Shown one piece after another: positions 2,224-62,048 of a stretch of 64,000 nt of DNA. Position 1 is the first letter of the stretch; each line of letters begins with the position of its first letter. The notes under the pieces are model-generated. The model saw nothing but the letters and a program-made list of their open reading frames with translations, did no database searches and had not been told where the DNA came from. This DNA comes from an uncultured Candidatus Saccharibacteria bacterium (lineage in GTDB: Bacteria; Patescibacteriota; Minisyncoccia; Phycocordibacterales; UBA5272), in the NCBI GenBank assembly GCA_964464695.1, contig CAYXKW010000005.1:8677-72676 (forward strand), given 5' to 3'. A program made the position numbers and the translations under genes.

Positions 2224-2275
2224 TATAATGGTTAGTTTAAATAGAAATTAAAATAAAAGCAATTAAATTTGCCAC

Positions 2276-2350
2276 CCACAGAGAGTCGGTCACGAAACTT
2301 CTCCTCGTAAACTCGTCGATAAAGTTTCGCGACCCCGTATTCGACTCTCC
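2276..2350 (-). repeat. structured dispersed repeat element, GAGTCGAATACGGG...GTGACCGACTC family, in inverted orientation
   Basis: The reverse complement GGAGAGTCGAATACGGGGTCGCGAAAC...GTGACCGACTCTC matches 18921-18985 (GAGGAGTCGAATACGGGTCGGAAATC...GTGACCGACTCC). The ends GGAGTCG/CGACTCC are inverted repeats. Confidence 0.7.
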
Positions 2351-2390
2351 CACAAACCACGCAGGTGGTTTGCTCTCTATTGATCACAGT

Positions 2391-2429
2391 CAACAAAAAT
2401 ACACAGGAAGAACCTGTGTATTTTTGTTG
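2391..2429. repeat. perfect 17-bp-stem hairpin (caacaaaaatacacagg / cctgtgtatttttgttg) with a 5-nt loop
   Basis: Seen directly. It lies between the repeat element and direct-repeat copy 2. Confidence 0.8.
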
Positions 2430-2430: not shown

Positions 2431-2524
2431 TGTGAGCGTTCAGCAGATAGAACTTACTGGGTTCGTTACCCCACAAAGCTTATTTGTTAGTTTTTAGTAT
2501 ACCATTTTAACCCTTCTCGTGAGC
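2431..2524. repeat. ~94-bp direct repeat, copy 2
   Basis: tgtgagcgttcagcagatagaacttactgggttcgttacc...ttagtttttagtataccattttaacccttctcgtgagc. Confidence 0.85.
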
Positions 2525-2921
2525 CTATTAAAAAGTGACAAAAGTGACACTTTTTACACAATTTAATTACAGCCAGATGTCACTATTTTTTACATATAGT
2601 TATATATTCTTCTATACATCAACAAGTGTAGATATATTAATTTGGTAGATACTTGAAATAGGATCAAAAACCAGTTCTCGATTAGAAAAAACAGCGGAAA
2701 AATGAGAAGAATTTTCTAATCATTTCTATTTAAACCTTATATATCAACGAATTTGTTTTATTTTGACTCAATATTTTGACACCAAAAACTTGTGATATAA
2801 TAAGAGGTAACAGCAGAGGTGCACGAAGCAGTGCAATGAGTAACTTTTTAGATAAAGGCTCACGTAATCTTGAAAAAGATACGTGGGCCTTTGTTTGTTT
2901 TAAATCCCTAACAAACAACAT

Positions 2922-4202
2922 ATGACTAAAAATATACAAGTCGTTTATCTATCAGTTGCCAGCCTTAACCCATCAGAGTACAATCCTCGCAAACATACAA
3001 CGGAACAAGCAAATCAGCTTAAAGAGAGTATTAAGCGATTCGGATTCATAGATCCAATAATCTGTAACAGTGCCAAAGGTCGAGAGAATACCGTTATCGG
3101 AGGGCACTTCCGCCTTGAGATGGCGAAGGAACTCAACATCACAGAAGTTCCTGTTGTGTTCGTAAACATTTCAGATCTTGAAAAGGAACAGGAGTTGAAT
3201 GTTCGCTTGAACAAAAACACTGGAGAATTTGATTTTGAAAAACTCCAACAATTAAACTTCGATATGCTGCTCGATATCGGTTTCGATCAAAAGGAGCTCG
3301 ACGACATATGGAATAACAAACTTAACAACAATGAGTTCAATGTCGAAGAAGAACTCAAGAAGATTAAGGAACCAAAGACACGAAAAGGCGACATTATTGT
3401 AATGGACGGATGCAGATTGATCTGTGGCGATTCACTTCTCCCTGAAACACTTCAAAAGCTTTTTGGTGACGAACGTGCTTCCTTAATAATCTCGGATCCA
3501 ATCTACAACATTTCTGTGAATTATGACAGTGGAATTGGGGGCAAACAAAGTTATGGAGGTACAGTCGATGATAACAAGACAGACAAGGAGTATGAAAACT
3601 TCTTGAGAAAGAGCATGGTCGCAGCACTCGCAGTAACAAAAGCTGATGCTAATATATTTTACTGGAGCGATCAGGCATATATCTGGCTTATTCAAACTCT
3701 CTACCGTGAACTTGGTATAACTAATCGTCGTGTGTGCATATGGTTGAAGAACTCACAAAATTGCGTACCTAAGGTAGCTTTCAACAAATGCTATGAACCG
3801 TGCACGTACGGTACTCGTGGTAAGCCGTATATTACAAAAGGTGTAAATGATCTCAATGAGATTATGAATGATGACATGACAACTGGTAATGATTTGTTAC
3901 AACAAGCACAAGATCATCTAACGGTATGGATGGAAAAGAGACTCTCTGGAAATGAGTACGAGCACAGCACTATGAAGCCAGATGAGGTCTATCAAAAAGC
4001 CATTCGTCGTTGTACAAAAATGAACGATATCATTCTTGATAGCTTCTCTGGTTCAGGAAGTACGATTATTGCAGGTATTAAGCTCAAACGCAGAGTGTAC
4101 GCTGTTGAAATTGAAGAAGTATTTTGTGACTTAACGATACGACGCTATGAAGCGTTAACAGGCAAAAAAGCAAAGGTTATCCGAAATGGCGAAAAAGGAT
4201 AA
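2922..4202 (+). CDS. ParB-like nuclease domain fused to a DNA methyltransferase, of the phage-type ParB/methylase kind
   Basis: N-terminal ParB/Srx-like region (IGGHFRLEMAKELNITEVPVVFV). C-terminal methyltransferase motif IV (SDPIYNI, a DPPY variant) lies upstream of motif I (ILDSFSGSGST), the beta-class order for N6A/N4C methyltransferases. Confidence 0.7.
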   Translation: MTKNIQVVYLSVASLNPSEYNPRKHTTEQANQLKESIKRFGFIDPIICNSAKGRENTVIGGHFRLEMAKELNITEVPVVFVNISDLEKEQELNVRLNKNTGEFDFEKLQQLNFDMLLDIGFDQKELDDIWNNKLNNNEFNVEEELKKIKEPKTRKGDIIVMDGCRLICGDSLLPETLQKLFGDERASLIISDPIYNISVNYDSGIGGKQSYGGTVDDNKTDKEYENFLRKSMVAALAVTKADANIFYWSDQAYIWLIQTLYRELGITNRRVCIWLKNSQNCVPKVAFNKCYEPCTYGTRGKPYITKGVNDLNEIMNDDMTTGNDLLQQAQDHLTVWMEKRLSGNEYEHSTMKPDEVYQKAIRRCTKMNDIILDSFSGSGSTIIAGIKLKRRVYAVEIEEVFCDLTIRRYEALTGKKAKVIRNGEKG

Positions 4203-4599
4203 AAAGGTTAAAGACTTTCTTGAACACCTTAACACCGTTCCCAATATTTCTCTCGCCTGTGAAAAAGTTGGCTTAGCGAGGAATACAATCTATCGTTGGT
4301 GTAAGGAAGATAAAGAGTTTCAGGAAAGTGTTGATAATGCACTTTTATGTGGCGTAGATTCTATTACAGATCTTGCAGAGAGTAAGCTCATAACTCATAT
4401 CAATAATGGAAACTTACGTTCTATTCAGTATTGGTTAGATAATCACAAAAAAGAGTATATACGACCACGAGTTATCGTAGATTCAAAAGATTCACTTGAA
4501 CCAATTTCGTACATTGAGATTCTTCCAGTAGATCCTAATAATCTTCCACCACCTCTACCGTTAAATGAATTTGATCTTCCTTTAGATTATATTGGTTAA
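4186..4599 (+). CDS. phage terminase small subunit-like HTH protein
   Basis: NTIYRWCKEDKEFQESVDNAL...LRSIQYWLDNHKKEYIRPR matches the conserved TerS N-terminal pattern (TVxRWL..EFR...AR..ADAL ... RLxVDTRKWxLSK). It overlaps the upstream gene by 17 nt. Confidence 0.55.
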   Translation: MAKKDKKVKDFLEHLNTVPNISLACEKVGLARNTIYRWCKEDKEFQESVDNALLCGVDSITDLAESKLITHINNGNLRSIQYWLDNHKKEYIRPRVIVDSKDSLEPISYIEILPVDPNNLPPPLPLNEFDLPLDYIG

Positions 4600-4733
4600 T
4601 AGTAACGGTAACAAAAACTATGACATAATGTCGTAGTTTTTGATATTTTGTAATATTTTTTTACTCTCACAATGTCGTCTTTTTTAGTTCTGCATAGACT
4701 ATGCAGGGATTATGGTTCTGTCATTAATATAAT

Positions 4734-6056
4734 ATGGAGACAAGAACAATTGGAAAGATACATAGCTCTGTAACCTTATCAGAAGTAAGAGTTAAGTACT
4801 GTCTATATGCTAGAAAATCAACTGAGTCAGATGAAATGCAAGCTTTGTCGATAGATTCACAGATTAAAGAAATGGAAGCTATAGCAGAGCGTTTAGGACT
4901 TTATGTTGTAGAAGTTAAAAGAGAATCTCATTCAGCAAAAGCTTCGGGTCAACGACCAGTGTATAAAAAGCTATTATCAGAAATTGATCAAGGAAAGTTT
5001 AACGGTGTATTAACGTGGGCGCCAGATCGGTTAAGTAGAAATGCAGGCGACCTGGGATCACTTGTTGATTTAATGGATCAGCGAAAATTAATCCATATAC
5101 AAACATATGGTCAAACTTTTTCTAACTCTCCTAATGAAAAGTTCTTGCTCATGATTCTTTGTTCTCAAGCAAAACTAGAAAATGATAATAAAAGTATTAA
5201 TGTTAAAAGAGGATTGAGAGCAAGAGTTGAAATGGGGTTATGGCCATGTCGTCCACCAACAGGATATACGAAGTTTAAAAGAATGGATCAAAAGTGCGAG
5301 TCTGTTATAGATGAAGTAAGGGCACCAATAATTAAACAAATGTTTGAAAAGGTTGGGTACGATGGTTGGTCTGGTAGAAAGGTGTGGGGTTGGCTTAAAG
5401 ATGATAAAGATTTTAAGACAGAGAATAATATACATCTAAGCTTAGGTAACTTTTATCGACTACTGCAAAATCACTTCTATTATGGAAGATTTGAATTCCC
5501 TAAAAACTCAGGAAATTGGTATAACGGATCACACATTCCAATTATCACAAAAGAACTCTTTGATTTAGTTCAAGAGAAAATTAAGAGTCAAATATTAGAA
5601 CCTAAAACCGAACAAAAGGAATTCGCTTTTACAAAGATCATGACATGCGGTCTGTGTGGTTCTGGTATTACAGCAGACGAGAAATTTAAACACCAACAAA
5701 ATGGTAATGTTCATAGATATGTGTACTACAAATGCACAAGAACGAGAGATCAGAATTGTCCCTGTGGTTTCCTTAATGAAGAGGATTTAATAGAACAACT
5801 AAAAGACCTCATTGATGATCTTAATATTCAGATAGTCCCCATGAAAGAGAAAATCACTAATGAGGTCAGAAGATTCAAGAAGTTTCAACATATGCTACTA
5901 GGAAACAAAACACCAATATCCGTTAAAGATATTGATATTCGTAACTATGCGAAGTTTATTTTGGTTGAGGGAGAAATGGAGGAAAAGAGAGAATTTTTTA
6001 AATGTCTCAATTCTAAGATACTACTATCGAATAAGAAAATTTTATTAGTAAATTAA
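4734..6056 (+). CDS. large serine recombinase, a phage-type integrase/resolvase
   Basis: N-terminal resolvase domain with catalytic Ser (YARKSTESDE ... LTWAPDRLSRN), a recombinase domain and a Cys-rich zinc ribbon (CGLCGS...YYKCTRTRDQNCPCG). 440 aa. Confidence 0.8.
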   Translation: METRTIGKIHSSVTLSEVRVKYCLYARKSTESDEMQALSIDSQIKEMEAIAERLGLYVVEVKRESHSAKASGQRPVYKKLLSEIDQGKFNGVLTWAPDRLSRNAGDLGSLVDLMDQRKLIHIQTYGQTFSNSPNEKFLLMILCSQAKLENDNKSINVKRGLRARVEMGLWPCRPPTGYTKFKRMDQKCESVIDEVRAPIIKQMFEKVGYDGWSGRKVWGWLKDDKDFKTENNIHLSLGNFYRLLQNHFYYGRFEFPKNSGNWYNGSHIPIITKELFDLVQEKIKSQILEPKTEQKEFAFTKIMTCGLCGSGITADEKFKHQQNGNVHRYVYYKCTRTRDQNCPCGFLNEEDLIEQLKDLIDDLNIQIVPMKEKITNEVRRFKKFQHMLLGNKTPISVKDIDIRNYAKFILVEGEMEEKREFFKCLNSKILLSNKKILLVN

Positions 6057-6094
6057 ACATATTTTCATGGTAAAATACATCATAATTAACCTTA

Positions 6095-6646
6095 ATGGAA
6101 GCTCTAATCTTAACTTATAAATATTGGATTATATTGCCTTTAGCTATTGTAGAAGGTCCAATTATAACCATAATAGCTTCATTTCTCGCTAGTATTGGTT
6201 TATTAAATGTATTTTTCGTTTACCCATTAGTTCTTTTAGGGGATATCATCGGTGACATTATTCATTATTTTGTTGGTAGAGTTGGTGGTAATAGAATAAT
6301 AAAAAAGTACGGTCATTATTTTAAAGTAACAGAAGATAATATTCATGAAGTTAAAGCGAAGTATTTTAATAATAAAAATTCACTTTGGAAAATTATTACT
6401 CTAAGTAAAATTACACATGCCCCATCATCTCTAATTATGTTGGTTTCTGGTATTGTGAAAATTGATTTTAAGCAGTTTTTACTAATTACGACTGTTAATA
6501 ATATTTTTAAAGTACTTGCATTCGTGCTCATCGGTTTCTTCTTCGGTAAGTCATACTTAGTGATTGAAAATTATATTAGTAATTCTTGGGTAATTTTTCT
6601 ACCAATATTTGGAATCATTGTTTACTTTTTATATTCAAAAAAATAA
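6095..6646 (+). CDS. DedA/SNARE-associated (VTT domain) membrane protein
   Basis: Multi-TM protein with the DedA-like motif LAIVEGPIITIIASFLASIG and a GDIIGDIIHYFVGR region. Confidence 0.6.
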   Translation: MEALILTYKYWIILPLAIVEGPIITIIASFLASIGLLNVFFVYPLVLLGDIIGDIIHYFVGRVGGNRIIKKYGHYFKVTEDNIHEVKAKYFNNKNSLWKIITLSKITHAPSSLIMLVSGIVKIDFKQFLLITTVNNIFKVLAFVLIGFFFGKSYLVIENYISNSWVIFLPIFGIIVYFLYSKK

Positions 6647-6649
6647 TGT

Positions 6650-7339
6650 ATGAAAAAGATATCTTGTATAATTCCAACTTATAATGAAGAAGAACAAATA
6701 GAAACAATACTCAGAACTTTAAACCCGTTACTGGGTAATACTTTAGACGAGGTAATAGTAATTGATGACTTTTCTTCTGACAGAACGAAGAAAATAGTTA
6801 AAGGACACAAAAATATCCTTTTGATTGAACATACAAAAAATGAAGGGAAGAGTAAAACCATTGCAGACGGAATTAGGGGAGCAAAGAATGATATCATTCT
6901 AATGATTGATGGTGACCTAATTGGATTAAACGAAACTAATATTTTAAATCTAGTTAATCCTATACTTACTAACTTAGCTGATATATCTATAAGTTATAGA
7001 GGTAATACACCTAAGTGGTGGATTCATTTTTTTAAGATCGAAACTTTTAGTGGAGAGAGATGTTTCTATAAAGAATTACTTTTGGACAATTTAAAGGAAA
7101 TAGAATATTTACCAGGATATGGATTAGAGGTTTACATCAATGAAAAGTTAGTTAGGAATAAACTTAGGATAAAGTCTGTCCCGATGAATAATGTAACAAT
7201 AAAATTTAAATGGCACAAACATGGCGTGATTATTGGTGTTTGGAAAGAACTATTAATGTGGAAAAATATTTTTGCCACAGTAAACCCTATAAAATTAATT
7301 ATACAAGTCGCAAAAATGAAGAAACTTTTGATTGATTAA
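6650..7339 (+). CDS. family 2 glycosyltransferase, polyprenyl-phosphate sugar transferase-like
   Basis: ISCIIPTYNEEEQI ... VIVIDDFSSDRT ... DGDL. GT-A fold with a DxD motif. Confidence 0.7.
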   Translation: MKKISCIIPTYNEEEQIETILRTLNPLLGNTLDEVIVIDDFSSDRTKKIVKGHKNILLIEHTKNEGKSKTIADGIRGAKNDIILMIDGDLIGLNETNILNLVNPILTNLADISISYRGNTPKWWIHFFKIETFSGERCFYKELLLDNLKEIEYLPGYGLEVYINEKLVRNKLRIKSVPMNNVTIKFKWHKHGVIIGVWKELLMWKNIFATVNPIKLIIQVAKMKKLLID

Positions 7340-8430
7340 AGTTTATACTTTCGTAGTATTGGTTTGTAGATATATAAAGAGATTTTTGACAATACAGACC
7401 ATAGCAATCTTCTTGCTAGATTTAAGTGTTGTGTATTAATAAACATATATTCAATTTCTGGCACAGCTCCTCTATTTAACTTAAAACTCGGTGCCCCAGA
7501 ACTTATATTGAGAAATAAACCATTATCATATGCGTATTTAATAATATAGATTAAACATCTTCTGTATAAAGCATTCTCGCTTGGTCGGTTAATTTCGTAT
7601 CCAACAATTGGAGCTGTAACAGTAACAGTGTCACCTATTAATCCAACTACAGCAACAAATTTACCCTGTTCTATATCTAGTAGTAACCTTAGATGCAGTA
7701 GATTTTCTTTACAAAGTTTTTGCATATAAAGTGCCGTATATTGAATATTTTCTTCAGTGTATTTCTCTAGGTAGAGTTTATTATAAAGAACTTCTGCAAT
7801 TTTAAAATGCTCAATATTATCAACATCAGGGCTGGTGAATATGTACTTTTCTGATTTTAATAGTTCAAGATCCCTGATAGCATCTCTTTTCTTTAAATTA
7901 AAACTTGGAAATATATAGACTTGTCTTGTAACAATTTGTATCCACCCATTTCTGAGTAAATTAGTAAGAATTTCATTATTTTGAGTTCCATTTATAGACC
8001 TAATTGCCAGTGTGTGGTCAGGATGTCTCTTTACTGCTTTTTTAGTTAAAGATTTAATATCTATGTCTTTCCAATACTCACTAAAAAAGTTAGTTGATAA
8101 CATATAGTTATTTAATGTTTGTATCTTATCTACTTTAAAAAATGAAAGGAAAGACGAGAATAAATTTATTACCACTCTCATAAGAAAAATGAGTACAAAA
8201 TTTTTTATCTTGTGAAGTTCTACTTTAGAGTAGTTTATGATCATCCCATTAGGGGAAACAACATAGCAGTTGTTTTCAAATACCTCGTCTGTAACTGTTG
8301 AGAGTATTAGTTTATTATCAAGTTCATAATATTCAATTTTAGTTTTTATATTATTAAAAAGATGTTCAATTTTATTTGAACAAAGTATTGAATGTAATTT
8401 GTATGAAAAGTCTTTTTCTAAGTTATCCAT
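7336..8430 (-). CDS. FemAB/CelD-like GNAT-fold acyl(aminoacyl)transferase (putative)
   Basis: The C-terminal half shows a GNAT-like pattern (VAVVGLIGDTVTVTAPIVGY...ALYRRCLIYIIKYAYDNGLFLNISSG). It overlaps the upstream ATP-grasp gene by 8 nt. Identification is weak. Confidence 0.3.
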   Translation of the reverse strand: MDNLEKDFSYKLHSILCSNKIEHLFNNIKTKIEYYELDNKLILSTVTDEVFENNCYVVSPNGMIINYSKVELHKIKNFVLIFLMRVVINLFSSFLSFFKVDKIQTLNNYMLSTNFFSEYWKDIDIKSLTKKAVKRHPDHTLAIRSINGTQNNEILTNLLRNGWIQIVTRQVYIFPSFNLKKRDAIRDLELLKSEKYIFTSPDVDNIEHFKIAEVLYNKLYLEKYTEENIQYTALYMQKLCKENLLHLRLLLDIEQGKFVAVVGLIGDTVTVTAPIVGYEINRPSENALYRRCLIYIIKYAYDNGLFLNISSGAPSFKLNRGAVPEIEYMFINTQHLNLARRLLWSVLSKISLYIYKPILRKYKL

Positions 8431-9514
8431 TGTATTCTATATCATGAGTGGTTGCCGCGGCAAAAGAAGTTTTATAACGTATTGTTATATACATCATTTC
8501 TAAAAAAGATAAAATCTGTGCCTTAACAGGAAGCTCACCGACAACATCCCTTGCTTTTTTATAGTCATGAATCAACTCAGGCAATCTTCCTTCATGGAGA
8601 TATTTAAACCAAAACATTAGATATATACTTTTACTTATTCTACAACTTTCAAACGGTTTTGTATCGTCTGATGAAAAAGTATTATTCTTAAAGTAAATTG
8701 AATCTGACAATAAATGCAATCCACTAGTTGCTCTTGGATTACACTCAAGTACATAGAGGTCTTTTCCATCATCAATAAAATCAAAAGCAATCTGACCATT
8801 ATATTTTGTATCCTTAGCAAACTGCTCTATAAAATTATTACATTTTTCATTTTTTGTTAATTCAAAATATGTTGACGCGGCATTATTTACTAAATATTTT
8901 GGCTTATAAACAATCTGACTAATAACCTTTCCTTTGTGAATTATGGCGTAATTACATAAATAAGATCCTTTTATAAACTGTTGTTGCACCCAAGGATACT
9001 TTTCTGATATATCTAATCCTAGTATGCTTTTTTTGGTGACATCCCTTATAACATTTGTTCCAAATCTAGAAAAAACAGGTTTGAGGAGTGTATCTTTATC
9101 TTCAGTTCTGATTTGATTAATACTTTCTATTAACCTCATCTCGGGTACTTTAACAAAATTATTCATAAATTGCTTAAATGTAAATTTATTATGAAGTCCA
9201 AGCAATAGACCATTCTCAGGAATAAAAACCTTTTCCTTTAGTGCTGTATCTTGAACGACTGAGCTTAAGTAAAAAACGTCTTCACAGGTAGGTATAACAA
9301 AATCACTGTTCTCTATAATCCTAATGATCTCTCTTTTATAGTTTTTGAAATCTAGTTTTGGTGAAGGTATTTTTATAAATTTTACATTTTTATAATATTT
9401 AGCCATCGGAAAGTACAAAGAGTCAACTACAGTAACGTCGTGACCAGATCTTTGCATAATTTTAACCCATTCTATGGTTACAGGGGCTCTTGGACAAGTA
9501 ATAGTAACTTTCAT
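8423..9514 (-). CDS. ATP-grasp domain enzyme, probably a carboxylate-amine ligase
   Basis: DLYVLECNPRATSGLHLL is typical of the ATP-grasp C-terminal catalytic region. 363 aa. Confidence 0.6.
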   Translation of the reverse strand: MKVTITCPRAPVTIEWVKIMQRSGHDVTVVDSLYFPMAKYYKNVKFIKIPSPKLDFKNYKREIIRIIENSDFVIPTCEDVFYLSSVVQDTALKEKVFIPENGLLLGLHNKFTFKQFMNNFVKVPEMRLIESINQIRTEDKDTLLKPVFSRFGTNVIRDVTKKSILGLDISEKYPWVQQQFIKGSYLCNYAIIHKGKVISQIVYKPKYLVNNAASTYFELTKNEKCNNFIEQFAKDTKYNGQIAFDFIDDGKDLYVLECNPRATSGLHLLSDSIYFKNNTFSSDDTKPFESCRISKSIYLMFWFKYLHEGRLPELIHDYKKARDVVGELPVKAQILSFLEMMYITIRYKTSFAAATTHDIEYNG

Positions 9515-9516
9515 AT

Positions 9517-10023
9517 TTATGAGACTAGTTTTTTAACAAGAGAACTACTATTTAAAATAATATTGTGAGTACCAACTAAGTTTTTATGAATGTGTGAATT
9601 ATTATATTTTGTAAAAATAAAAGGAACAGTAGTATCAAATAAAAATCCATATGATTTTTGTTCTCTTACCTGTATATGTGTTTTGTATGGTAATTTATTG
9701 ATTATTTTTCTAAACCACACAAATTTCACTTGGTGGGGCGAAGCTATTGTTATAATGCTATCTATTTTTTTGTATAGTTCTTCTTTTAAAGAGTAAGAAA
9801 TAACTCCACCAAAAGAGTGTCCTACCAAAATAAACTTACCATCCTCTTTTTCTAAGAAAGAGTTAATCTCACCAATTAATGCAAGATGTTTACCTGTTTG
9901 GTGTAATGTATAAAACATCGGAAAATAAAAAACCTCCATACCTATGGATTCAAAAGCTTTTAAAATAAGATAATTTCTAAATCTAAAATTATGTATACCT
10001 TGTATAAAAATTACTTTTTTCAT
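9517..10023 (-). CDS. alpha/beta hydrolase, thioesterase or lipase-like
   Basis: GxSxG nucleophile elbow (LVGHSFGGVIS). 168 aa. Confidence 0.5.
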   Translation of the reverse strand: MKKVIFIQGIHNFRFRNYLILKAFESIGMEVFYFPMFYTLHQTGKHLALIGEINSFLEKEDGKFILVGHSFGGVISYSLKEELYKKIDSIITIASPHQVKFVWFRKIINKLPYKTHIQVREQKSYGFLFDTTVPFIFTKYNNSHIHKNLVGTHNIILNSSSLVKKLVS

Positions 10024-10031
10024 GAGAGGTA

Positions 10032-10946
10032 TTAAAAATCAACAAAAGACTTTGTTGGATTGTATTTTAACATATTTTTAGCTTTGTTTATAGAAAGATA
10101 ATGGTTAGAAGTCATCTGGTGGACTATGTATTTACTTATAAAAGGCGCTTTTTTAATACTTAATAACTTAAAAAGAATCTCTAATATAGAACCAATTAAA
10201 AAAGCTACTTTTGTTGATATATATAGATTTTTTGCTTGTATATTAAACTTCTTTTTAACATGTGCCATTAGGCTATTTATTTTTACTGATTCTTGGTCTG
10301 CGATGTTAAAAATTTCTTTCTGAAATTCTTCTTTTGTTTCAATGCTGTTTTTAATTGCCAGACAAAGATTATCTATATGCGTTATTGAAATAGTATTATC
10401 ACCACTTCCTAAAATAATAAATCTATTAAATCTATGAGACCTTAATAATCTTGGTATAATTTTTTTATCCATAGCACCATAAATGACATGCGGTCTTAGT
10501 ATTATTTTTTGTGATTTACTATCATGATTTAAAACAACCAGTTCTGCTTCATATTTTGATTGACTATACCCATTTAAAAAATTACCACACATAGATGCCT
10601 CATCAATTGTGTGATTGATGTCCTCAGGGTCATAGACACTACATGAACTTATGTATATAAACTTTTGCAAGTTAGAAAAACTATCTAATGTGTTTTTCGT
10701 ACCAACACAATTATTCTCATAGCATTCCTTATAAGTTGCCCAATCATCAACGGTTCCAGCACAGTGAACTAAAACATCAATTTGAACTGGGTGACTTATT
10801 TGCCCATTAGATATGTCCCAATAAGTAAAGTTCTTGTCATTTTTTCTTCGCGAGAAACCAACAACATCATAGTTGTGTTTTTGTAAGTAAGTATAGAGAG
10901 AACCCCCTACAAATCCATTTACTCCAGTGATTCCTATTTTTAACAT
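10032..10946 (-). CDS. NAD(P)-dependent SDR, epimerase/dehydratase/reductase family
   Basis: N-terminal Rossmann motif GITGVNGFVGGSL. Its start is translationally coupled to the upstream AMP-ligase stop, so it could act as a reductase (R) domain partner. Confidence 0.6.
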   Translation of the reverse strand: MLKIGITGVNGFVGGSLYTYLQKHNYDVVGFSRRKNDKNFTYWDISNGQISHPVQIDVLVHCAGTVDDWATYKECYENNCVGTKNTLDSFSNLQKFIYISSCSVYDPEDINHTIDEASMCGNFLNGYSQSKYEAELVVLNHDSKSQKIILRPHVIYGAMDKKIIPRLLRSHRFNRFIILGSGDNTISITHIDNLCLAIKNSIETKEEFQKEIFNIADQESVKINSLMAHVKKKFNIQAKNLYISTKVAFLIGSILEILFKLLSIKKAPFISKYIVHQMTSNHYLSINKAKNMLKYNPTKSFVDF

Positions 10947-12469
10947 AAACTGTTACTAGTGATATAGTATTTTATTTTGTTCTTATCTATTTTTTGTGTT
11001 CTACCACTAAGAGGAAGTTCCATTATGATGATTTTATCAGGAAGAGCTGTTTTATCTATACTGTGCTCTCCTTTGCTTAATTCATTAAATATTCTTTTCT
11101 CAAAAGTCTTATTATCCTCTTGTAAGGTCATATCTTTTTCAATAGCTAAATAAATTTTCTCATCTTCTAATTCATCATTATAAATTCCCACCATTGCACA
11201 GTTTTTAATACCCCTTATATTACTTATCGTAGATTCAAAAATTGAGGGGTATATATTATAATTTTTTCTTATAATCATGTCTTTTTTTCTCCCTAATAGT
11301 ACTAGCCCATTTTTATCAAGAGTCCCTAGATCTCCAGTGTAATGTTCTGTTACCTTATCTAGTCCGAGGTATCTATTAAAAAGATTTTTTCCAGAAACAC
11401 AAATTTCATTGTCTATTATTCTTATTGTGACACCATTTGCAACTGTTCCTAGTAAGTCACCATTTGTATTTAAATTTATCTTATCTTGTAACTCCACATA
11501 CGAGATGGGTAATATTTCCGTTGCCCCGTAAACACAGATAACTTTTGTACTTTTAGATATTATTGTATTTAGTTTAGATAAAAATCCTTTTAAAACAGGA
11601 GCTGAGCCTAGGACGATTGTTTCAAGTGTATTTGGAAGTTTTACATTGTTTCGAGAACAAAACTCCATTGTTTGATTATACTCGGCAGGGATTCCAAAAG
11701 TTTTGTTTACTTTAAATTTAAGTACATCTTTATAAAACTTATCTGTTTTAAAATTAAGGTTACTTGGCAATACTACTCGTGACCCTGACAGGATAGACGC
11801 TAATAAAAAATGAAGTTGTGAGGAGTAGAAAATGTCAGTATGTTGTATATTAAGAATTTCTTCAATTTTTTTAAGTATTTCAAATAAGGATTCGTAGGTA
11901 TGAACCACGCCCTTCGGAATACCCGTTGTGCCAGATGTAAAAATAATTACAGAGTCTTTTTGATCATCTGTGCGTATTTCAGTAAAATTAGACTTATTAT
12001 TTTCAACTTTTTTAACGAGTATTTTATTAAGTTTTCTGAGTGTACTTATATCAGGAATATTTATATGGAACATCTTTATGAGAGTTTCAATATAAGGGGT
12101 GTTAATTATAGTGTTGAGAATCGGATCTACTAATACGTGTTCTGGTTTTGCAAAGTTAACTCTCCCAATAAAATTATCTTTCCCCATTGATGGGTCAGCT
12201 AAGACTAAAACACCACCAGCTCTAATAATTGCAAATATATACACAATACTTTCAATACTTGGTTTTGCTAGGAATAAGACTTTGTCCTCTTTTTTAAAAC
12301 CATTCTTAACTAAACGAATTGCTACTGAATCAATCTGAAGTAAAAAATCTTTAAAACTAATTTTTTTACCATTAGTAGTTTCTATAATTGATGTATCTTT
12401 TAGAAACTCTTTTTGTGAAAATAGTTTCTCTAAAATAAGATTAGAATACAAATTAATCTGTGATTTCAT
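10940..12469 (-). CDS. AMP-dependent synthetase/ligase, an adenylation enzyme
   Basis: AMP-binding core motif IFTSGTTGIPKGVVHT. 509 aa. It overlaps the upstream ACP gene. Confidence 0.75.
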   Translation of the reverse strand: MKSQINLYSNLILEKLFSQKEFLKDTSIIETTNGKKISFKDFLLQIDSVAIRLVKNGFKKEDKVLFLAKPSIESIVYIFAIIRAGGVLVLADPSMGKDNFIGRVNFAKPEHVLVDPILNTIINTPYIETLIKMFHINIPDISTLRKLNKILVKKVENNKSNFTEIRTDDQKDSVIIFTSGTTGIPKGVVHTYESLFEILKKIEEILNIQHTDIFYSSQLHFLLASILSGSRVVLPSNLNFKTDKFYKDVLKFKVNKTFGIPAEYNQTMEFCSRNNVKLPNTLETIVLGSAPVLKGFLSKLNTIISKSTKVICVYGATEILPISYVELQDKINLNTNGDLLGTVANGVTIRIIDNEICVSGKNLFNRYLGLDKVTEHYTGDLGTLDKNGLVLLGRKKDMIIRKNYNIYPSIFESTISNIRGIKNCAMVGIYNDELEDEKIYLAIEKDMTLQEDNKTFEKRIFNELSKGEHSIDKTALPDKIIIMELPLSGRTQKIDKNKIKYYITSNSLC

Positions 12470-12695
12470 TGTTAATTACCTTTAGTACATCACCTAGGGT
12501 TTTATATTTTCTAAATAGTTCTTTATTTTTAGGCTCAATGGTATATTTATTTTTAACTACAGCCAAAAGCTCCCCAAGATCTATCGAATCTTTAATATAG
12601 ATAGAAAGATCAGAAGATTCATTTAAGTCTTCTTGTATCTCAAATATGTAATTTAGTATCTCCACTAAGTTATCTTGTGTCATTTTGCTATGCAT
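12453..12695 (-). CDS. acyl carrier protein (phosphopantetheine-binding)
   Basis: 80-aa acidic protein with a DSIDLGEL serine attachment motif. Confidence 0.6.
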   Translation of the reverse strand: MHSKMTQDNLVEILNYIFEIQEDLNESSDLSIYIKDSIDLGELLAVVKNKYTIEPKNKELFRKYKTLGDVLKVINNEITD

Positions 12696-13479
12696 TTTTT
12701 CCTTTATAAAAAGATGACTGCTCCTCTTTGTATTTATGGTGTAGTGTACCCATTACTTTATCCCAGAAAGAAAAATACAACCCGTAATTTAAATAACCAT
12801 ATTTATGATGCATATTATGGTGGATAGAACTTGTAAAAACTGCACCAAGTTTTTTATTCATAGTAGGGGTTAGGAATTCATACCCCAAATGACCAATTGT
12901 GTTTCCTATAGAATTAATAATAAATACTGCTACAACCGTATAAATATGAACTGGAATAATAAGACACATTAATATAAAATAAAATCCAAAAATAACATTC
13001 CCCAGAGGACTAAAAGAGAAATTTGTGAATGGTGTTGGGTTTTTATTTGTATGGTGAACCGCATGAGTATATTTGAAGACTGTCTCATGTGAATGCATGA
13101 ATCGGTGCACCCAGTAAAAATATGTATCCTGAAGTCCTGCAAATAATAGTATTGTAAATACAAAGTATAGATTACTGTGTTCAGAAATATCAAAATATAC
13201 TTTTGTATATCCATGATTTACTAAAGATATTAAAATATAGGCTATTATAATATAACAAAGCATGCTTACTGTAGACCATTTAATATCGAAAATAATACTA
13301 TCTTTGCTTGGTTCTTCGCTCTGAATTTTGTAGTCTCTTAAAGTGTTCTTTTTTAATTTATATACATAAAGATAAGCTATTGATCCTAGAATATAGTTAC
13401 AAGATAAAAAAACACCCACAAATAAATAAAAGTAGTTTATATGATCTATTTGCAATAAATTGTTTAGATTTGAAAGCAT
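12688..13479 (-). CDS. fatty acid hydroxylase / sterol desaturase family membrane di-iron enzyme
   Basis: Histidine boxes HRFMHSH, HAVHH and HHNMHH in a multi-TM protein. Confidence 0.65.
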   Translation of the reverse strand: MLSNLNNLLQIDHINYFYLFVGVFLSCNYILGSIAYLYVYKLKKNTLRDYKIQSEEPSKDSIIFDIKWSTVSMLCYIIIAYILISLVNHGYTKVYFDISEHSNLYFVFTILLFAGLQDTYFYWVHRFMHSHETVFKYTHAVHHTNKNPTPFTNFSFSPLGNVIFGFYFILMCLIIPVHIYTVVAVFIINSIGNTIGHLGYEFLTPTMNKKLGAVFTSSIHHNMHHKYGYLNYGLYFSFWDKVMGTLHHKYKEEQSSFYKGKNA

Positions 13480-13575
13480 AATTATGACTTAATAATAGCA
13501 CAATTTACCTAAAATTTTAAAAAATAACAGCACCAAAGATAAAGGTACTGTCATATGTTTTTCAACATGTAAAAT

Positions 13576-14250
13576 CTATTGTTTCCAAACACTTTTAAGG
13601 AAAGACCCGTATTTGAGGAAATGCAAAGTCTGTTCATGAACCTGCCCTGAAAAAACAAGTCCTGTGTGACTTGTAAAAACTTTTGTATGGGGGATATTCT
13701 CCCCAACCTGAGTTTCACTAACTAGGACAACACCGTCATTTTCAAGTAACTTTTTATAACCCTCAAGACCTTTAGCGTTGGGGAGTAAATCAAGCAACTT
13801 AAACGTCGACGCTACCCTAAACAGATTAAAAGTATCATCCGTTCCTGCGATAACGCCAATGCGAACAGGCGTGTCTAGTGGCATTGTCACTCCGTCAGTT
13901 GCGATCAATCTTATTGCCTTAGGTAACATCCATGAAGTTTTGCCTTGAGAGATGGTTCTCCCTAGGATAGACCCATTGAGTGGTGATCCTAAGCAGACAA
14001 CCTTTTCAAGACTTGGGAACTGTTTCAAGTGGTATGCCGTGATTGTGCCCCCTAAACTATGACCAACAATAACCTGAGGGCGAAAATCATTAACTTCTTT
14101 GATAAATCTAGTTGTGATGTCATCTGTTTCTGGAATGAGTGGGTAGCTAAAGACTTTTACATCATATCCAGCATCCTTTAACTTTTTTACGAAAGGTGAC
14201 ATCAAAAACGCATTCATGAACATACCGTGAACTAAAAGAACTTTGTCCAT
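13576..14250 (-). CDS. alpha/beta hydrolase; start chosen at the internal MDKVLLVHGM
   Basis: GHSLGG nucleophile elbow. HG oxyanion motif near the N-terminus. Confidence 0.5.
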   Translation of the reverse strand: MDKVLLVHGMFMNAFLMSPFVKKLKDAGYDVKVFSYPLIPETDDITTRFIKEVNDFRPQVIVGHSLGGTITAYHLKQFPSLEKVVCLGSPLNGSILGRTISQGKTSWMLPKAIRLIATDGVTMPLDTPVRIGVIAGTDDTFNLFRVASTFKLLDLLPNAKGLEGYKKLLENDGVVLVSETQVGENIPHTKVFTSHTGLVFSGQVHEQTLHFLKYGSFLKSVWKQ

Positions 14251-14306
14251 TGCTAATCTCCTGTAATTAGAACTACAAATAAGACTACAGGAACACAACG
14301 ACTGAG

Positions 14307-14837
14307 TCAATTTGTCTTTAAAGAAATAGAAAATATATAACCATTATCTTCAAAGAGATTACTTATCCAGGTACTGTTTTCCTTTTTCAGAGTTATATAG
14401 CCCTTAACGTAAGTTACTATTTTATATTGATTTGGATTAGAAATTGTTTCGTCAGATTTCTGAACAGACTCTTTCAAAGACCACATAACAGTTTCTTGGG
14501 TTGTTGTCTTTTTATAGAATTTCGTTAAAATAGACAATTCATTTTCATCGCAACAATAACTAAGTAGTTCTCTTTTTCTTGGACGTAAGTATTCAACATC
14601 AATGCCTATATTAAAATCTTTACACAAAGCCACAAAAACTATTTCCTGTGAATCAGAAACCGAACAAAATAAATCTTCATGGTTGGATATGTAGGGTTTA
14701 TTGTTTTTCTTTTTTATCACCACATCAAGACCAAAAGCATTTTTAGCTAAAGTTTTAAGTAGCAGATATTTATCTGTGATACTTTTGTTTCCTATCTTAT
14801 AAAATACAACTTTTTTGTTTAAAACTATTTTTTGCAT
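14307..14837 (-). CDS. 4'-phosphopantetheinyl transferase (Sfp/AcpS superfamily)
   Basis: YISNHEDLFCSVS ... FNIGIDVEYLRPR resembles the PPTase motifs (SISHS / GIDIE). Confidence 0.5.
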   Translation of the reverse strand: MQKIVLNKKVVFYKIGNKSITDKYLLLKTLAKNAFGLDVVIKKKNNKPYISNHEDLFCSVSDSQEIVFVALCKDFNIGIDVEYLRPRKRELLSYCCDENELSILTKFYKKTTTQETVMWSLKESVQKSDETISNPNQYKIVTYVKGYITLKKENSTWISNLFEDNGYIFSISLKTN

Positions 14838-14876
14838 TATTTACTGTATAAGTTTAGTATACTAGATACCATACTC

Positions 14877-15881
14877 ATGAAATCTAAAATTACAGCGCTG
14901 GCATACTATTTGCCAGAAAAAATAGTGACCAATAGTGAAATAGAGGCTAAGTTACAACAAAATAACCCTCATCTACACATACCTGAAAACATTATAGGGA
15001 TAACCACAGGTATAAAATCTAGAAGGTTTTGTGGTGAAAACGAATATAACTCAACGTTAGCATCTAAGGCGGCACTAGTTTTATTTGAAAAATATAGTAT
15101 CAACCCAAAAGATATTGATTTACTTATTTTTGCTTCAGCAGGACAGGATCTCATTGAACCTGCAACTTCTCACATAGTGCAAGATATTTTAAAAACATCT
15201 TGTAGAGTATTTGATATAAAAAATGCTTGTAATGGATTTATAGACGCATTAATTGTAGCAGATGCTTTTATTAAATCTGGAATACATAAAAATATACTTA
15301 TTGTAACAGGTGAGGTTTGTTCAAGTGTTATTAAATGGAATCTAAAAGATAGAGATGATTTAAAAAATAGTTTCCCAGGGTATACGTTAGGAGATATGGG
15401 GACAGCTATTTTAGTGCAAGAATCAAATAATGATTTTGGACTAGTAGTGAGTGAGTGTTTAAATGATAGCAGTAAATGGAAGGTTGGAACTCTACCAACT
15501 GGAGGATCTAGGCACCCTCGAGGTGATGAGTACACATATTTTAGTGGTGATGGTCCACAGTTGAGAGATTCTTTTGCAAAAATTGCACCAAAGTTTTTTA
15601 ACGATTTCCTAATAAAAAATAATATAGATAAAGATACTATTGACCATATCTGTATGCACCAAGTTTCTAAAGCTTACTTAGAAGAAATGGTTTCTTCATT
15701 GAAAATTGATCCTAATAAGATTATTCATACTGCGGAACAATTCGGTAATGTCGCCGCCGCCACAATTCCACTTCAGCTTGCACTATTAAATGAAAAAGAA
15801 AAGATAAAAAAAGGAGATAAAATTTTACTAATAGGTTTAGCGGGAGGGGTTAGTGTTGAGCTTGTATATATTATTTGGTAA
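14877..15881 (+). CDS. 3-oxoacyl-ACP synthase III-like (FabH/KAS III family) condensing enzyme
   Basis: MKSKITALAYYLPEKIVTNSEIE has a FabH-like N-terminus. Cys region NACNGFIDAL. C-terminal GNVAAATIPL. Start taken at an internal Met of the 14832 ORF. Confidence 0.7.
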   Translation: MKSKITALAYYLPEKIVTNSEIEAKLQQNNPHLHIPENIIGITTGIKSRRFCGENEYNSTLASKAALVLFEKYSINPKDIDLLIFASAGQDLIEPATSHIVQDILKTSCRVFDIKNACNGFIDALIVADAFIKSGIHKNILIVTGEVCSSVIKWNLKDRDDLKNSFPGYTLGDMGTAILVQESNNDFGLVVSECLNDSSKWKVGTLPTGGSRHPRGDEYTYFSGDGPQLRDSFAKIAPKFFNDFLIKNNIDKDTIDHICMHQVSKAYLEEMVSSLKIDPNKIIHTAEQFGNVAAATIPLQLALLNEKEKIKKGDKILLIGLAGGVSVELVYIIW

Positions 15882-17352
15882 ATAATTCTAATATTTTTTG
15901 TCTATTTGGTTTCAATGTATGAGTATAAGGAAAATCAGTACTGTTAAATAAAGTCACTTTTTCTATTTTAATATTGTTAGGTAATTTTGAATGAAGATGA
16001 TCTAAATCTATTGTAATCTTTTGTTCAGATTTTATTGCACAGTATATAACTGGGGAATCTTGTCTTAGTTCATGCACGATGCAAACCTCTTCAGTATCCG
16101 TAATAGTAGAGATAATATACTCCAAATCTTCAGCAAAAATCTTATCTCCAGTTGGCCATACAATTAGATTTTTAGTTCTACCTTTCAGTACTAAATTGTT
16201 ATTCTTATCAAAGTCAACAACATCACCTGTATTAAATTCAGTATTACTATAATTTGGATAATATCCTAAAAATATATTATCTCCTGATACCACTAGTTCA
16301 TTATTTTCATTTTTTGTATATTTTAAACCCTTTACAATCTGACCAACATTACCCTCTTTCCTTTTTTGGTTTATAGATATTGAGATAACAGGTGATGTCT
16401 CAGTTAGCCCATAACCAAGATGAACTTTATATCCGAGTCCTTGAAAGAAATCATCTGTTTCTTTGCTTAACATTGCCCCACCAACGACAAAACTTTTCAG
16501 ACTTGTACCTATTTGATTTCTGATAACACTAAACAATACTCTTCTTACTATACTTGGGGCATACGATGAAAGTATAATAAATCTCTTCACTAGATTTCTA
16601 ATATTTTTGTTACGAATCTTTCTAAGAATAGATGATTGTATTAAATACAAAACTTTAGGAACAACTATTATAGTTTTTATCTTATATTTTCTTATAGCTT
16701 TTATTATTTTAAATGAATCAGGTTTTTCTAAAAAAACTATATGTGAACCAACTAGCAGAGGTATTATTAGTCCTGTTGTTTGTTGATAAGCATGGGACAT
16801 TGGTAAAATACTAAGTACAGACTCTTCTTTTGTATGGTGATATATATCAAGAATTTGGTATGCATTTGTTAGAATATTCTTCTGACTTAGCATTACTCCC
16901 TTTGGTATACCCCATGTACCAGAAGTAAAAAGTATTTCTGAAACATCATTTGAATTGCTGTTAAATAATGTTTCTGTGCGTGTTTCTCGTGACAGTAGTT
17001 CTTCTATGTGTAAAACATGACCATTTTTTAATGTGTATGAATTAGAAATAACTAGTATAGGTTTAATATTTTCAATGACACTATCTATAAAGTTTTGACT
17101 TACTCTAGTGTCAACAGGCACTATTACCCCACCTTTTAAGATTACAGCAAAATAGATACAAACCCATTCTATATTTGGTATATCAAATAAAACAACCCTG
17201 TCACCTTTCTTCACTTCATGTAACTTAGAAATATATTTGTATATCTGCTTATACACATCACCATACGTTATATTAATTTCACTTTCAAAACTAGAAAAAG
17301 CAGTATCGTTGTTATCTTTAAATCTGTCTACTAATTGTTTGAAAGAGTCCAT
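15871..17352 (-). CDS. AMP-dependent synthetase/ligase, a fatty-acyl-AMP ligase-like second adenylation enzyme
   Basis: LFTSGTWGIPKGVMLS AMP-binding motif. 493 aa. Confidence 0.7.
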   Translation of the reverse strand: MDSFKQLVDRFKDNNDTAFSSFESEINITYGDVYKQIYKYISKLHEVKKGDRVVLFDIPNIEWVCIYFAVILKGGVIVPVDTRVSQNFIDSVIENIKPILVISNSYTLKNGHVLHIEELLSRETRTETLFNSNSNDVSEILFTSGTWGIPKGVMLSQKNILTNAYQILDIYHHTKEESVLSILPMSHAYQQTTGLIIPLLVGSHIVFLEKPDSFKIIKAIRKYKIKTIIVVPKVLYLIQSSILRKIRNKNIRNLVKRFIILSSYAPSIVRRVLFSVIRNQIGTSLKSFVVGGAMLSKETDDFFQGLGYKVHLGYGLTETSPVISISINQKRKEGNVGQIVKGLKYTKNENNELVVSGDNIFLGYYPNYSNTEFNTGDVVDFDKNNNLVLKGRTKNLIVWPTGDKIFAEDLEYIISTITDTEEVCIVHELRQDSPVIYCAIKSEQKITIDLDHLHSKLPNNIKIEKVTLFNSTDFPYTHTLKPNRQKILELFTK

Positions 17353-17439
17353 TTGGGAGTTATTATAACTACATTATAACATCTTTGTATATCGTAGTTT
17401 TATTAAATACATACTATAATGGTACTATTAAAATAAACT

Positions 17440-18261: not shown

Positions 18262-18331
18262 GCTTTGGTTCTTATAATTTAAGACTAACCGAAAAGCATT
18301 ATAAACGACGCTTCTCGTGCTAGCTGTTGAA

Positions 18332-18405
18332 GGTGACCCCACGGAGAGTCGAACTCCGCTTACCGGCATGAAAAGCCGATGTCCTAACCGATAGACGATG
18401 GGGCC
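18332..18405 (-). tRNA. tRNA-Glu (UUC)
   Basis: Reverse complement GGCCCCATCGTCTATCGGTTAGGACATCGGCTTTTCATGCCGGTAAGCGGAGTTCGACTCTCCGTGGGGTCACC folds as a cloverleaf. Acceptor stem is 7 bp, anticodon loop TTTTCAT gives UUC, and the T-loop is GTTCGACT. Confidence 0.85.
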
Positions 18406-18896: not shown

Positions 18897-18920
18897 AGAA
18901 AATGAACTGCTTCATTTTCG

Positions 18921-62028: not shown

Positions 62029-62048
62029 GCATACCAAAAAACCCATTC

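Follow-up and report, generated by a model that had tools for sequence, protein, structure and literature searches.

A direct repeat that runs from within the T loop to the 3' end of a tRNA gene is, as Williams reportedly described in 2002 (Nucleic Acids Res 30:866), the classic signature of integrases that target the T loop. Elements of the IS200/IS605 type choose their targets through base pairing with sequence beside the foot of a hairpin. In Methanopyrus kandleri, a palindromic motif lies ~10 bp downstream of about half of the tRNA genes and has been proposed to act in 3' maturation (PMC5217627). We show here that Saccharibacteria-type (CPR) genomes bear, immediately 3' of many tRNA genes, a structured module whose outer arms are copied from the adjoining tRNA. 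Its anatomy, tRNA linkage, conservation and turnover are described for a window of 64,000 nucleotides (the whole stretch of DNA that was analysed) and for related loci in other genomes and in metagenomes. The module is apparently undescribed, with no Rfam family and no description in the literature searched. Rfam 15 reported only tRNAs and 16S rRNA in the window at its gathering score, and only spurious miRNA and snoRNA matches for the modules at E up to 10. Literature searches on Saccharibacteria or CPR plus tRNA returned nothing relevant, and those on palindromes 3' of tRNA genes returned only the M. kandleri motif.

Read along the sense strand, the tRNA gene is followed by a perfect A/T-rich palindrome of terminator-like form, then by P1, a small hairpin whose loop is CUGC, and lastly by a long hairpin. 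The palindrome is made of A- and T-tracts around a short GC-containing stem and often stretches to cover the last 10 nt of the tRNA. Such palindromes went uncalled by a simple terminator scan because their loops are shorter than 3 nt. The likeness to a terminator concerns the palindrome, not P1 or the long hairpin. In the consensus structure, P1 (8-9 bp) is followed by a basal stem, the bulge AAUACGG, a helix and a free apex. Both arms of the long hairpin come from the adjoining tRNA, the 5' arm being the reverse complement of positions 54-64 and the 3' arm repeating that tRNA directly, from position 56 onwards in the 3' direction. What lies between them is common to the family, namely the helix GGUCGCGAAA/UUUGUGACC with fixed G.U positions, the 5' bulge and the apex. 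A 3-nt CGA overlap is possible at the core boundaries.

The window contains two such tRNA-module pairs. tRNA-Val(GAC), called by ARAGORN and Rfam at 18767-18840 on the plus strand, owns module B, which follows it on the same strand at 18892-18992 (covariance model R1, 98.5 bits, E 1.4e-21). Module B comprises P1 (18899-18918), the 5' arm (18922-18932, GAGGAGTCGAA, the reverse complement of tRNA-Val 54-64), the conserved helix with its apex, a GTGAC (18974-18978) and the 3' arm (18979-18986). Between the gene and the module, a repeat search found a perfect palindrome at 18831-18896 (32-nt arms, 100% complementarity), whose left arm takes in the last 10 nt of tRNA-Val and whose centre resembles a bidirectional terminator hairpin. 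A tandem second module with a long bulge occupies 18993-19120, also on the plus strand, and contains the GACGTCGCGAAGCC box listed in the initial annotation. This diverged variant has no R1 match in the window; it aligns with the second modules of loci L036, L142 and L009, and its core aligns with an element behind tRNA-Arg in L026.

tRNA-Glu(UUC), called by the same two programs at 18332-18405 on the minus strand, owns module A, which lies on the minus strand at 2275-2379 (R1, 89.5 bits, E 1.9e-19). Here P1 spans 2353-2373 with the loop CUGC, the 5' arm GGGAGAGTCGAA is the reverse complement of the tRNA-Glu T loop and the 3' half of its T stem, and the bulge and the conserved helix follow. 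The long hairpin (2283-2347, minus strand) reads GAGTCGAATACGGGGTCGCGAAAC...GTTTCGTGACCGACTC, and the RNA fold of the module has a free energy of -35 kcal/mol (z -2.9). A decayed direct copy of the tRNA-Glu 3' end, reading CGACTCTCTGTGGGTGGCA, forms the 3' arm and flank of module A at 2270-2288 (minus strand). An A/T-rich perfect palindrome with 18-bp arms, again terminator-like, lies at 2390-2430 and was recognised from the sequence, from the comparison with L001 and in a palindrome survey. L001 is a contig of a strain 95-98% identical to the window, reached through an exact histidine-kinase protein. There, tRNA-Glu stands directly before the palindrome and module A, and module A therefore belongs to tRNA-Glu; in L018 and L036, too, tRNA-Glu directly precedes a palindrome of this type. 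The 3' end of module A in L001 is an exact 19-nt repeat of tRNA-Glu positions 56-74 (C56 to C74), CGACTCTCCGTGGGGTCAC. Modules A and B each fold into a long imperfect hairpin with a 5' bulge, and the composite pattern GAGTCG..GGTCG..GACCGACTC has two matches in the window, one in each of them, with none expected from 100 shuffles.

The dependence of the arms on the local tRNA extends beyond the window. Compared over 28 pairs of tRNA and module, the 5' arm and the reverse complement of tRNA 54-64 have a per-position identity of 0.86-1.0. The initial annotation had suggested looking for target-site duplications at the element boundaries; a duplication exists there, but where a MITE would have a short one it is a direct repeat of ~19 nt (tRNA 56-74). 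Starting at C56, it is perfect through position 74 in ~10 of the 28 copies and decayed past the T stem in the others. The two direct repeats are separated by only 150-190 bp. Both arms track the tRNA's own loop positions 59-60, and the loop variants TTCGACT, TTCGAAT, TTCGATT, TTCGAGT and TTCGATC are mirrored in them. The inverted termini thus vary from copy to copy, each being equal to the T-arm sequence of its neighbour, and it is for this reason that copies differ in their 'terminal inverted repeats'. The arms stay undecayed even in copies whose acceptor part of the repeat has decayed, which suggests that selection acts on them in place.

Several other interpretations of the module were discarded. 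A small ORF was rejected, the frame not being conserved across copies and the stems changing by compensation. A Y-shaped tRNA-like RNA with an acceptor stem as conserved unit was rejected as well, an antisense-acceptor segment and an intact acceptor copy occurring together in few copies. Hammerhead and box-C-like motifs (a CUGAUGA in one apex) are absent as a conserved feature across core types. A possible resemblance of UCGAAUACGGGGUCGCGAAAC to the 5' part of the tRNA-like domain of tmRNA was dropped as a lead; no tmRNA was called by ARAGORN at any of the loci, and none was matched by Rfam.

The initial annotation had described one dispersed module, a long perfect hairpin next to a structured element built of shared boxes, at four or more intergenic loci of the window. 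That observation is partly confirmed and its interpretation partly supported. The shared architecture stands at 2276-2429 and 18831-19130, on the evidence of R1 and the composite pattern; the perfect A/T-rich hairpins beside GC-richer sequence are real there (2390-2430 and 18831-18896), and folding bears out, for modules A and B, the proposed terminal inverted repeats closing one long imperfect hairpin. It falls at 61150-61402 and 25020-25340. With its filters off, R1 found nothing significant in the rest of the window (best E about 0.5-1, all outside the claimed elements), and these two loci are therefore not copies of the 3' module family. The larger part of the former, 61150-61345, is a 5' module of the kind described below, and its palindrome at 61364-61402, perfect as it is, does not adjoin any module. 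The latter had been listed as a partial copy, but 24990-25350 has no significant similarity to either family, and grouping 25020-25340 with either was rejected by local alignment against shuffles; the region holds only a local 43-nt direct repeat (25094/25275). The short boxes said to link the loci occur at chance frequency (CGAAGCC four times against 2.4 expected, CCGACTC three times against 1.7). The four loci are two unrelated families and chance boxes pooled together.

This bears directly on the possibility of a single REP/MITE-like family scattered over four or more intergenic loci upstream of unrelated genes, which we regard as very improbable. Two of the loci do share an element, and its copies do fold as hairpins. 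However, the 64 kb hold only two canonical copies and one variant, the other two loci belong to a different family or to none, and the neighbour that defines a copy is a tRNA. The genes named as downstream context (the AbiGi-like gene, the hemerythrin-kinase operon, tRNA-Ile and the P-loop kinases) are incidental; the constant neighbour is the tRNA gene on the 5' side. The module is tied to the 3' side of tRNAs and has neither the length nor the GTAG head of a REP, and none of 105 neighbouring ORFs matched a transposase family among the top families.

The expectation of a structured multi-copy family was well founded, and scanning other genomes with a pattern and a covariance model yielded many more copies. 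The pattern TCGAATACGGG-N20-50-GTGACCGAM, run over 185,579 species genomes, returned 113 loci, of which ~31 are true members, all in low-GC MAGs; the remainder are chance matches in GC-rich coding DNA. The member MAGs are labelled mostly Candidatus Saccharibacteria, with some Paceibacterota, Parcubacteria, Nomurabacteria or simply 'bacterium'. Of the labelled relatives, the one nearest to the window is L035, a Saccharibacteria MAG that shares synteny with it at 71-80% identity of nucleotides. R1, built from 34 copies, matched further copies behind other tRNAs of the same loci, and a metagenome scan added 64 loci. Saccharibacteria-like MAGs and metagenomes together supplied 96 copies (85 distinct), and the tRNAs that precede them have at least 25 anticodon types. 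Several of the copies lie at contig ends.

All 24 of the first-examined modules with an ARAGORN tRNA nearby lie downstream of that tRNA on the same strand, at 55-95 nt, or at ~200 nt where two modules stand in tandem. At the metagenome loci, 37 of 56 modules follow a same-strand tRNA, six sit at locus edges, and 13 have no upstream tRNA call. Most of these 13 are accounted for by three situations: an island end of the type seen in the window stands between tRNA and palindrome (L156 and L166, with related ends in L126, L136 and L157), the copy is placed after another module, or it comes after a tRNA interrupted by an intron-like insert. Roughly 40% of the further tRNA genes sampled near the index copies bear ~190 bp of this conserved, tRNA-tailored structure, and many tRNAs have no module at all. 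Among 105 neighbouring ORFs in 8-kb segments around ~30 loci, no transposase, integrase or recombinase family is enriched among the top families and the neighbours are housekeeping genes. No recombinase associated with the modules was found among these 105 and the 35 ORFs of the window, the window has no tyrosine recombinase, and no copy of the module motif was found in viral contigs.

A second family, built in a similar way, occurs in tRNA leaders. A sensitive self-comparison of the window revealed a repeat (GGCTCGAGAAGCTTGGCTTCGAAGATG...) at 18651-18697 and twice at 61172-61344. On the basis of repeat search and similarity, it defines a 5' module in the tRNA-Val leader (18648-18735, plus strand), which the first reading of the sequence had missed, and two tandem units in the tRNA-Ile leader (61150-61345, minus strand). 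The 5' module begins with a copy of tRNA positions 1-13 (...TAGCTC), continues with a covarying insert of two hairpins, GAG-hairpin-CGAAGATG-hairpin with an AGCA loop, and then resumes with the D-loop sequence CAGTTGGTAGA. For nine of ten matches to its pattern, a tRNA on the same strand (Val, Lys, Asp, Ala or Ile) follows at a distance of 79-204 nt. The leader of tRNA-Glu holds a partial copy of that tRNA (18443-18540, minus strand; blastn and repeat search), comprising its 5' two-thirds split by two hairpin-bearing inserts and including an exact 17-nt copy of the anticodon arm. A promoter-like site at 18607-18636 lies just 5' of 18648-18735, and promoter-like sites place the window's tRNA-Val and tRNA-Glu copies within the tRNA leaders. 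The tRNA genes can thus have an element of one kind on either side, and each kind is a piece of the tRNA split by a conserved hairpin insert, at the D loop in one case and at the T loop in the other.

The hairpins of the 3' module are supported by covariation. In an alignment of the 85 distinct copies that was itself fitted to the model, so that its counts lean towards that model, 95.5% of paired cells can pair (76% in shuffles), 21 of 27 pairs show double changes, and covariation scores 0.562, whereas shuffles score 0.193 and slid partners no more than 0.09; none of 500 shuffles reached the observed values. The helices were recovered unchanged by MAFFT and RNAalifold, run independently of the model. 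All but one of the 85 copies (84 of 85) have a G.U at one position, and another position varies between G.U, A-U and G-C. This fixed G.U, together with the fixed strand, favours a single-strand reading of the tRNA-sense strand. Watson-Crick pairs fill 94-97% of stem cells, and once the two fixed columns are set aside, G.U hardly exceeds A.C in number (44:33; by stem, 18:7 in P1, 22:20 in the basal stem and 4:6 in the variable helix). The mismatch spectra are symmetric, and the adjoining palindromes, though not alike in different orthologues, are perfect over up to 33 bp. Watson-Crick symmetry this close to perfect is found more typically in DNA palindromes than in the stems of an RNA. This symmetry and the scarcity of wobble pairs therefore incline us, to a moderate degree, towards a hairpin that would act at the DNA level; a structured regulatory RNA, as the initial annotation had offered among its readings, is possible.

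The main rival explanation takes up the RNA side of this evidence and holds that the module is a cis-acting structured RNA of the tRNA transcription unit, a trailer. Transcripts that read through from the tRNA, or that are initiated separately, would fold into P1 and the long hairpin, and the 5' arm would have two possible partners, the 3' arm of the module itself and the T arm of the tRNA beside it. The role might be termination or insulation, processing or quality control of the tRNA 3' end, or the binding of a protein, and the 5' module would have a matching role in the leader, where promoter-like sites indeed place it. The position on the tRNA sense strand at a fixed distance, the strong covariation with its near-invariant G.U, the conserved linkers and CUGC loop, and the retention of the module in many small-genome lineages all speak for such an RNA, as do arms that remain identical to the tRNA despite decay elsewhere in the repeat, as if the match matters. 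Nevertheless, we consider a trailer RNA rather unlikely. A strong terminator-like palindrome stands between tRNA and module, a distance of 16 kb parts module A of the window from its tRNA, and there are many tRNAs that lack a module. Orthologous sites differ in their core types, which do not follow tRNA identity, the variable stems have very little wobble, and no Rfam family matches.

The turnover of modules between genomes resembles that of a repeat family. Orthologous tRNAs occur with a module, without one, or with another core type; behind the orthologous tRNA-Arg(UCU), three genomes have three core types and a fourth has only a remnant. In 45 of 54 cases, a core has its nearest relative behind another type of tRNA, and one and the same core can be found in separate MAGs behind tRNAs that are not the same. 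Variants of P1 recur in different combinations, modules occur in tandem, and the orthologous A copies of two strains are 87.7% identical compared with 95-98% for their flanks. Several loci have intact downstream repeats, that is, displaced tRNA ends, followed by their own terminator; some of these repeats have CCA where the functional gene copy has only C-A. Empty sites consist of a plain tRNA-CCA plus terminator, an example being tRNA-Ile(GAU) of the window (61033-61108, minus strand), whose gene includes the CCA, has an ordinary terminator behind it and lacks a 3' module. CCA is encoded by 5 of 54 module-bearing tRNAs compared with 10 of 38 tRNAs without a module (Fisher p 0.044), a weak association that is blurred by variant modules missed by the model. 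Among close strains, no precise pair of filled and empty sites with exact boundaries was found.

Some of this could arise without any element. Hairpins might grow by inverted copying of their flank, and palindrome-templated (template-switch) mutagenesis beside the constrained end of a tRNA would then yield chains of sense and antisense tRNA-end copies as a functionless by-product. Sense and antisense copies of the tRNA end do alternate around successive hairpins, palindromes of at least 30 bp are perfect and differ between orthologues without ever being mismatched, and the symmetric mismatch spectra fit as well. We find this origin improbable all the same, for it leaves unexplained the conserved core, the bulge and the CUGC loop, the fixed G.T mismatches that persist despite the tendency to perfect palindromes, and the presence of identical cores in different genomes.

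Module A is separated from its tRNA by an island of 15.9 kb (2436-18332), which lies between the 3' end of tRNA-Glu and the palindrome with module A. The island is absent from L001 and L018, its junctions are exact to 4 nt, and in L001, where window positions 2436-18332 are lacking, the palindrome and module A directly follow tRNA-Glu. According to Pfam, the island encodes a large serine recombinase (4734-6056), a ParB-N6 DNA methylase, an HTH protein and acyl/lipid-type cargo; it uses the serine recombinase and leaves no long repeat. The same island end abuts modules in L156 and L166. Right behind the displaced tRNA-Glu end of module A lies the AbiGi-like gene segment (1300-2265), whose final 105 bp are also present in the island. 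The slot after the displaced tRNA end is itself variable: L018 has a DUF4238 gene there, L036 has a PGA_cap gene, and in L088 the slot is empty. The junction of tRNA and module and the displaced tRNA end are thus landing sites for serine-recombinase islands and small defence genes.

Given that tRNA ends are active integration sites here, the modules might be scars of tyrosine-integrase elements that target the T loop, reduced to attachment-site arms after loss of their cargo. The direct repeat begins in the T loop and runs to the tRNA 3' end, as such an origin would have it, and partial copies of the tRNA 5' part are found upstream too. We nonetheless think scars of this kind improbable. No integrase lies near any of about 30 loci, and a hairpin of 50-60 nt stands midway in what would be the crossover region. 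Random deletions would not leave one architecture of ~100 nt, with its conserved internal helix and compensatory changes, behind at least 25 tRNA types, as is the case here. The island in the window, for its part, has a serine recombinase, no long repeat and a different junction.

The reading that we prefer, with a probability of about 0.4, is that the 3' module is a non-autonomous DNA-hairpin insertion element that duplicates and restores the 3' end of a tRNA gene, or a domesticated descendant of one. Insertion mechanism, trans-acting factor and any function are what we infer here. A small element without cargo, acting as a DNA hairpin, would enter the T loop of a tRNA gene at position 55/56 and would supply a replacement 3' end with its own terminator, so that the original 3' end would be displaced downstream and become the second direct repeat. 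Once folded, the basal stem would rebuild the double-stranded T-arm target within a single strand, and a putative enzyme acting in trans might pair element and target through this rebuilt T arm, by analogy with CTX-phage attP, integron attC and IS200/IS605. Palindrome-templated correction could keep the arms matched to the local tRNA, and cores and P1 units would be swapped between tRNA loci. Linkage to tRNAs, copied arms, a displaced gene-like end, repeat-family dynamics, DNA-like stems and conserved hairpins argue for such an insertion element. On the other side, the conserved sequence is internal and the termini are variable, the reverse of ordinary MITEs, and each copy has up to three tRNA-specific segments, which would not be expected of a simple mobile element. 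The lack of an enriched transposase or integrase, of copies in viral contigs and of a precise filled and empty pair among close strains, in the samples described above, and the undecayed arms also count against insertion, and the fixed G.U, fixed strand and conserved linkers fit an RNA as well. In addition, CPR genomes are streamlined, at roughly 1 Mb, and selfish DNA is usually scarce in them.

We tentatively propose, with the odds leaning somewhat against it, that the module represents a new class of tRNA-templated hairpin element, which would be either hairpin-guided mobile DNA or a new cis-encoded RNA, with the 5' module as a companion built alike around the D loop. As mobile DNA, it would recognise T loops through a stem that mimics the target and would rebuild the gene on insertion. 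As an RNA, it would be encoded behind many of the tRNA genes of Saccharibacteria, a large share of them, and would contain the T arm of its own tRNA in both antisense and sense copy. In either case a tRNA-tailored structure is carried despite the tiny, streamlined genomes of Saccharibacteria and other CPR bacteria. If mobile, the module would show that non-autonomous elements can select an essential target, and repair it, in a way that is new, and would account for the gathering of islands and defence genes at tRNA ends in these genomes; if an RNA, it would point to an unknown step of tRNA expression in a major uncultivated lineage. For annotation, the covariance model provides a marker of module regions and helps to explain assembly breaks.

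Comparison with known systems places the module between several of them. Like the M. kandleri motif (PMC5217627), its palindrome lies 3' of many, but not all, tRNA genes in one lineage. The M. kandleri motif, however, is an archaeal simple palindrome of 18 nt (PMC5217627), and it has neither tRNA-derived arms nor sequence similarity to the module. With bacterial MITEs such as Correia, RUP, BOX and ERIC, the module shares a short, intergenic, hairpin-forming and multi-copy nature, subfamilies and a mosaic make-up. Its termini, in contrast, are not conserved between copies, it is confined to tRNA flanks, and no parent IS is known or nearby. The ends of IS200/IS605 elements, their PATE derivatives and REP/RAYT systems likewise consist of a conserved imperfect hairpin on one strand and are non-autonomous and multi-copy. 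The module differs from IS200/IS605 and REP in that no Y1/HUH transposase was seen and no GTAG/CGTC head appears in alignment A1. A REP is an imperfect palindrome of 20-40 nt, whereas the module has ~100 nt and two hairpins; and unlike in IS200/IS605, its putative 'guide' is 11 nt long and tRNA-specific and its insertion would duplicate ~19 nt.

Integron attC sites and CTX-phage attP(+) offer a closer parallel in their folding, as in both a hairpin stem of a single strand remakes a double-stranded site in a strand-specific manner. As in attC, the stem of the module has extrahelical bases (the 5' bulge), a freely variable apex and covarying helices. Yet the A1 consensus contains no R''/R' boxes (RYYYAAC ... 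GTTRRRY), there is no integron integrase (IntI) and no cassette array among the housekeeping neighbours, and the site mimicked in the proposed recombination would be the T arm of a tRNA instead of attI or dif. In genetic layout, finally, the module resembles the islands and prophages that tyrosine integrases insert into the T loop: a direct repeat of the tRNA begins inside the T loop and extends as far as the 3' end, a functional gene is restored, the displaced end lies downstream, and the site is a hotspot for further insertions. Unlike those, the 'island' of the module measures only ~150-190 bp, without integrase or cargo between the repeats. A conserved hairpin divides its would-be crossover region, an inverted copy of the T arm is always present, and one design stands behind at least 25 tRNA types.

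The 3' end of tRNA-Glu is exactly the insertion point of a strain-variable island of 15.9 kb (window 2436-18332), which shows an overlap of 4 nt at the junction and is missing from both L001, a strain 95-98% identical to the window, and L018, a locus from a relative. This island carries genes for a ParB-N6 methylase (2922-4202), an HTH protein (4186-4599) and a large serine recombinase (4734-6056), together with a cargo of two AMP-binding enzymes, a KAS-III-like protein, a phosphopantetheinyl transferase, a fatty-acid hydroxylase, an epimerase and a glycosyltransferase. In two further loci (L156 and L166), the end of the island recurs next to modules, the conserved hairpin elements found 3' of many tRNA genes. 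A segment with an AbiGi-like gene (1300-2265) directly adjoins the displaced tRNA-Glu end, a decayed direct copy of the 3' end of the gene (2270-2288, minus strand). The distal 105 bp of this segment are shared with the serine-recombinase island at 83-84% identity (2431-2534), and the segment appears to be what is left of a second such island, from the same family. In relatives the same slot is occupied by DUF4238 (L018) or PGA_cap (L036), or is empty (L088).

Another strain-specific indel is found at 23845-24973, where the window has two P-loop kinase genes, one AAA_33/zeta-toxin-like (23878-24384) and the other AAA_18-like (24405-24938), and L001 has about 13 nt at the equivalent place. The large polysaccharide-biosynthesis cluster (about 25.4-56.5 kb) includes a gene of the 23S rRNA intervening-sequence-protein family (PF05635; 29399-29746). 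Upstream of an O-antigen-ligase-like gene, the intergenic sequence holds a local 43-nt direct repeat (25094-25136 and 25275-25317, 88% identity) and a local 31-nt inverted repeat (25196-25226 and 25348-25378, 81%), both of which are kept in L001 and bear no relation to the tRNA modules.

Modules often lie less than 200 nt from a contig or locus end (L018, L029, L067, L079, L152, L164 and L179), and this frequent placement suggests that short-read assemblies of Saccharibacteria genomes break at these repeats. The terminator palindromes that occupy the spacers between tRNA and module (e.g. window 18831-18896, L130, L108 and L180) vary in sequence between genomes at orthologous positions, yet each is perfectly self-complementary over at least 30 bp, and 14 of them include exactly 10 nt of the tRNA. 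Together these features suggest that a template-switch process actively perfects palindromes in these genomes.

At the far end of the window (61033-64000), the 3' end of the 16S rRNA gene lies at 63644 and tRNA-Ile follows 2.5 kb downstream, with four small ORFs without assigned function on the opposite strand in between (61594-63340). Neither tRNA-Ala nor 23S follows within the window, which means that the genes of the rRNA operon are unlinked or the operon is interrupted. The related locus L013 has the tRNA-Ile segment in inverted orientation with respect to 16S.

Partial tRNA sequences were also observed. The tRNA-Glu leader contains a partial copy of tRNA-Glu (18443-18540), comprising the acceptor 5' strand, D arm and anticodon arm, which is split by two hairpin-bearing inserts of about 25-30 nt each, one with a CTGC-containing loop. 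Upstream of the module at 9184 in L160, a further related locus, some 150 nt of sequence that looks structured lead up to the 3' part of a tRNA (T arm and acceptor end). ARAGORN called no tRNA in this stretch (about 8950-9180), which may represent a tRNA gene with a group-I-type intron.
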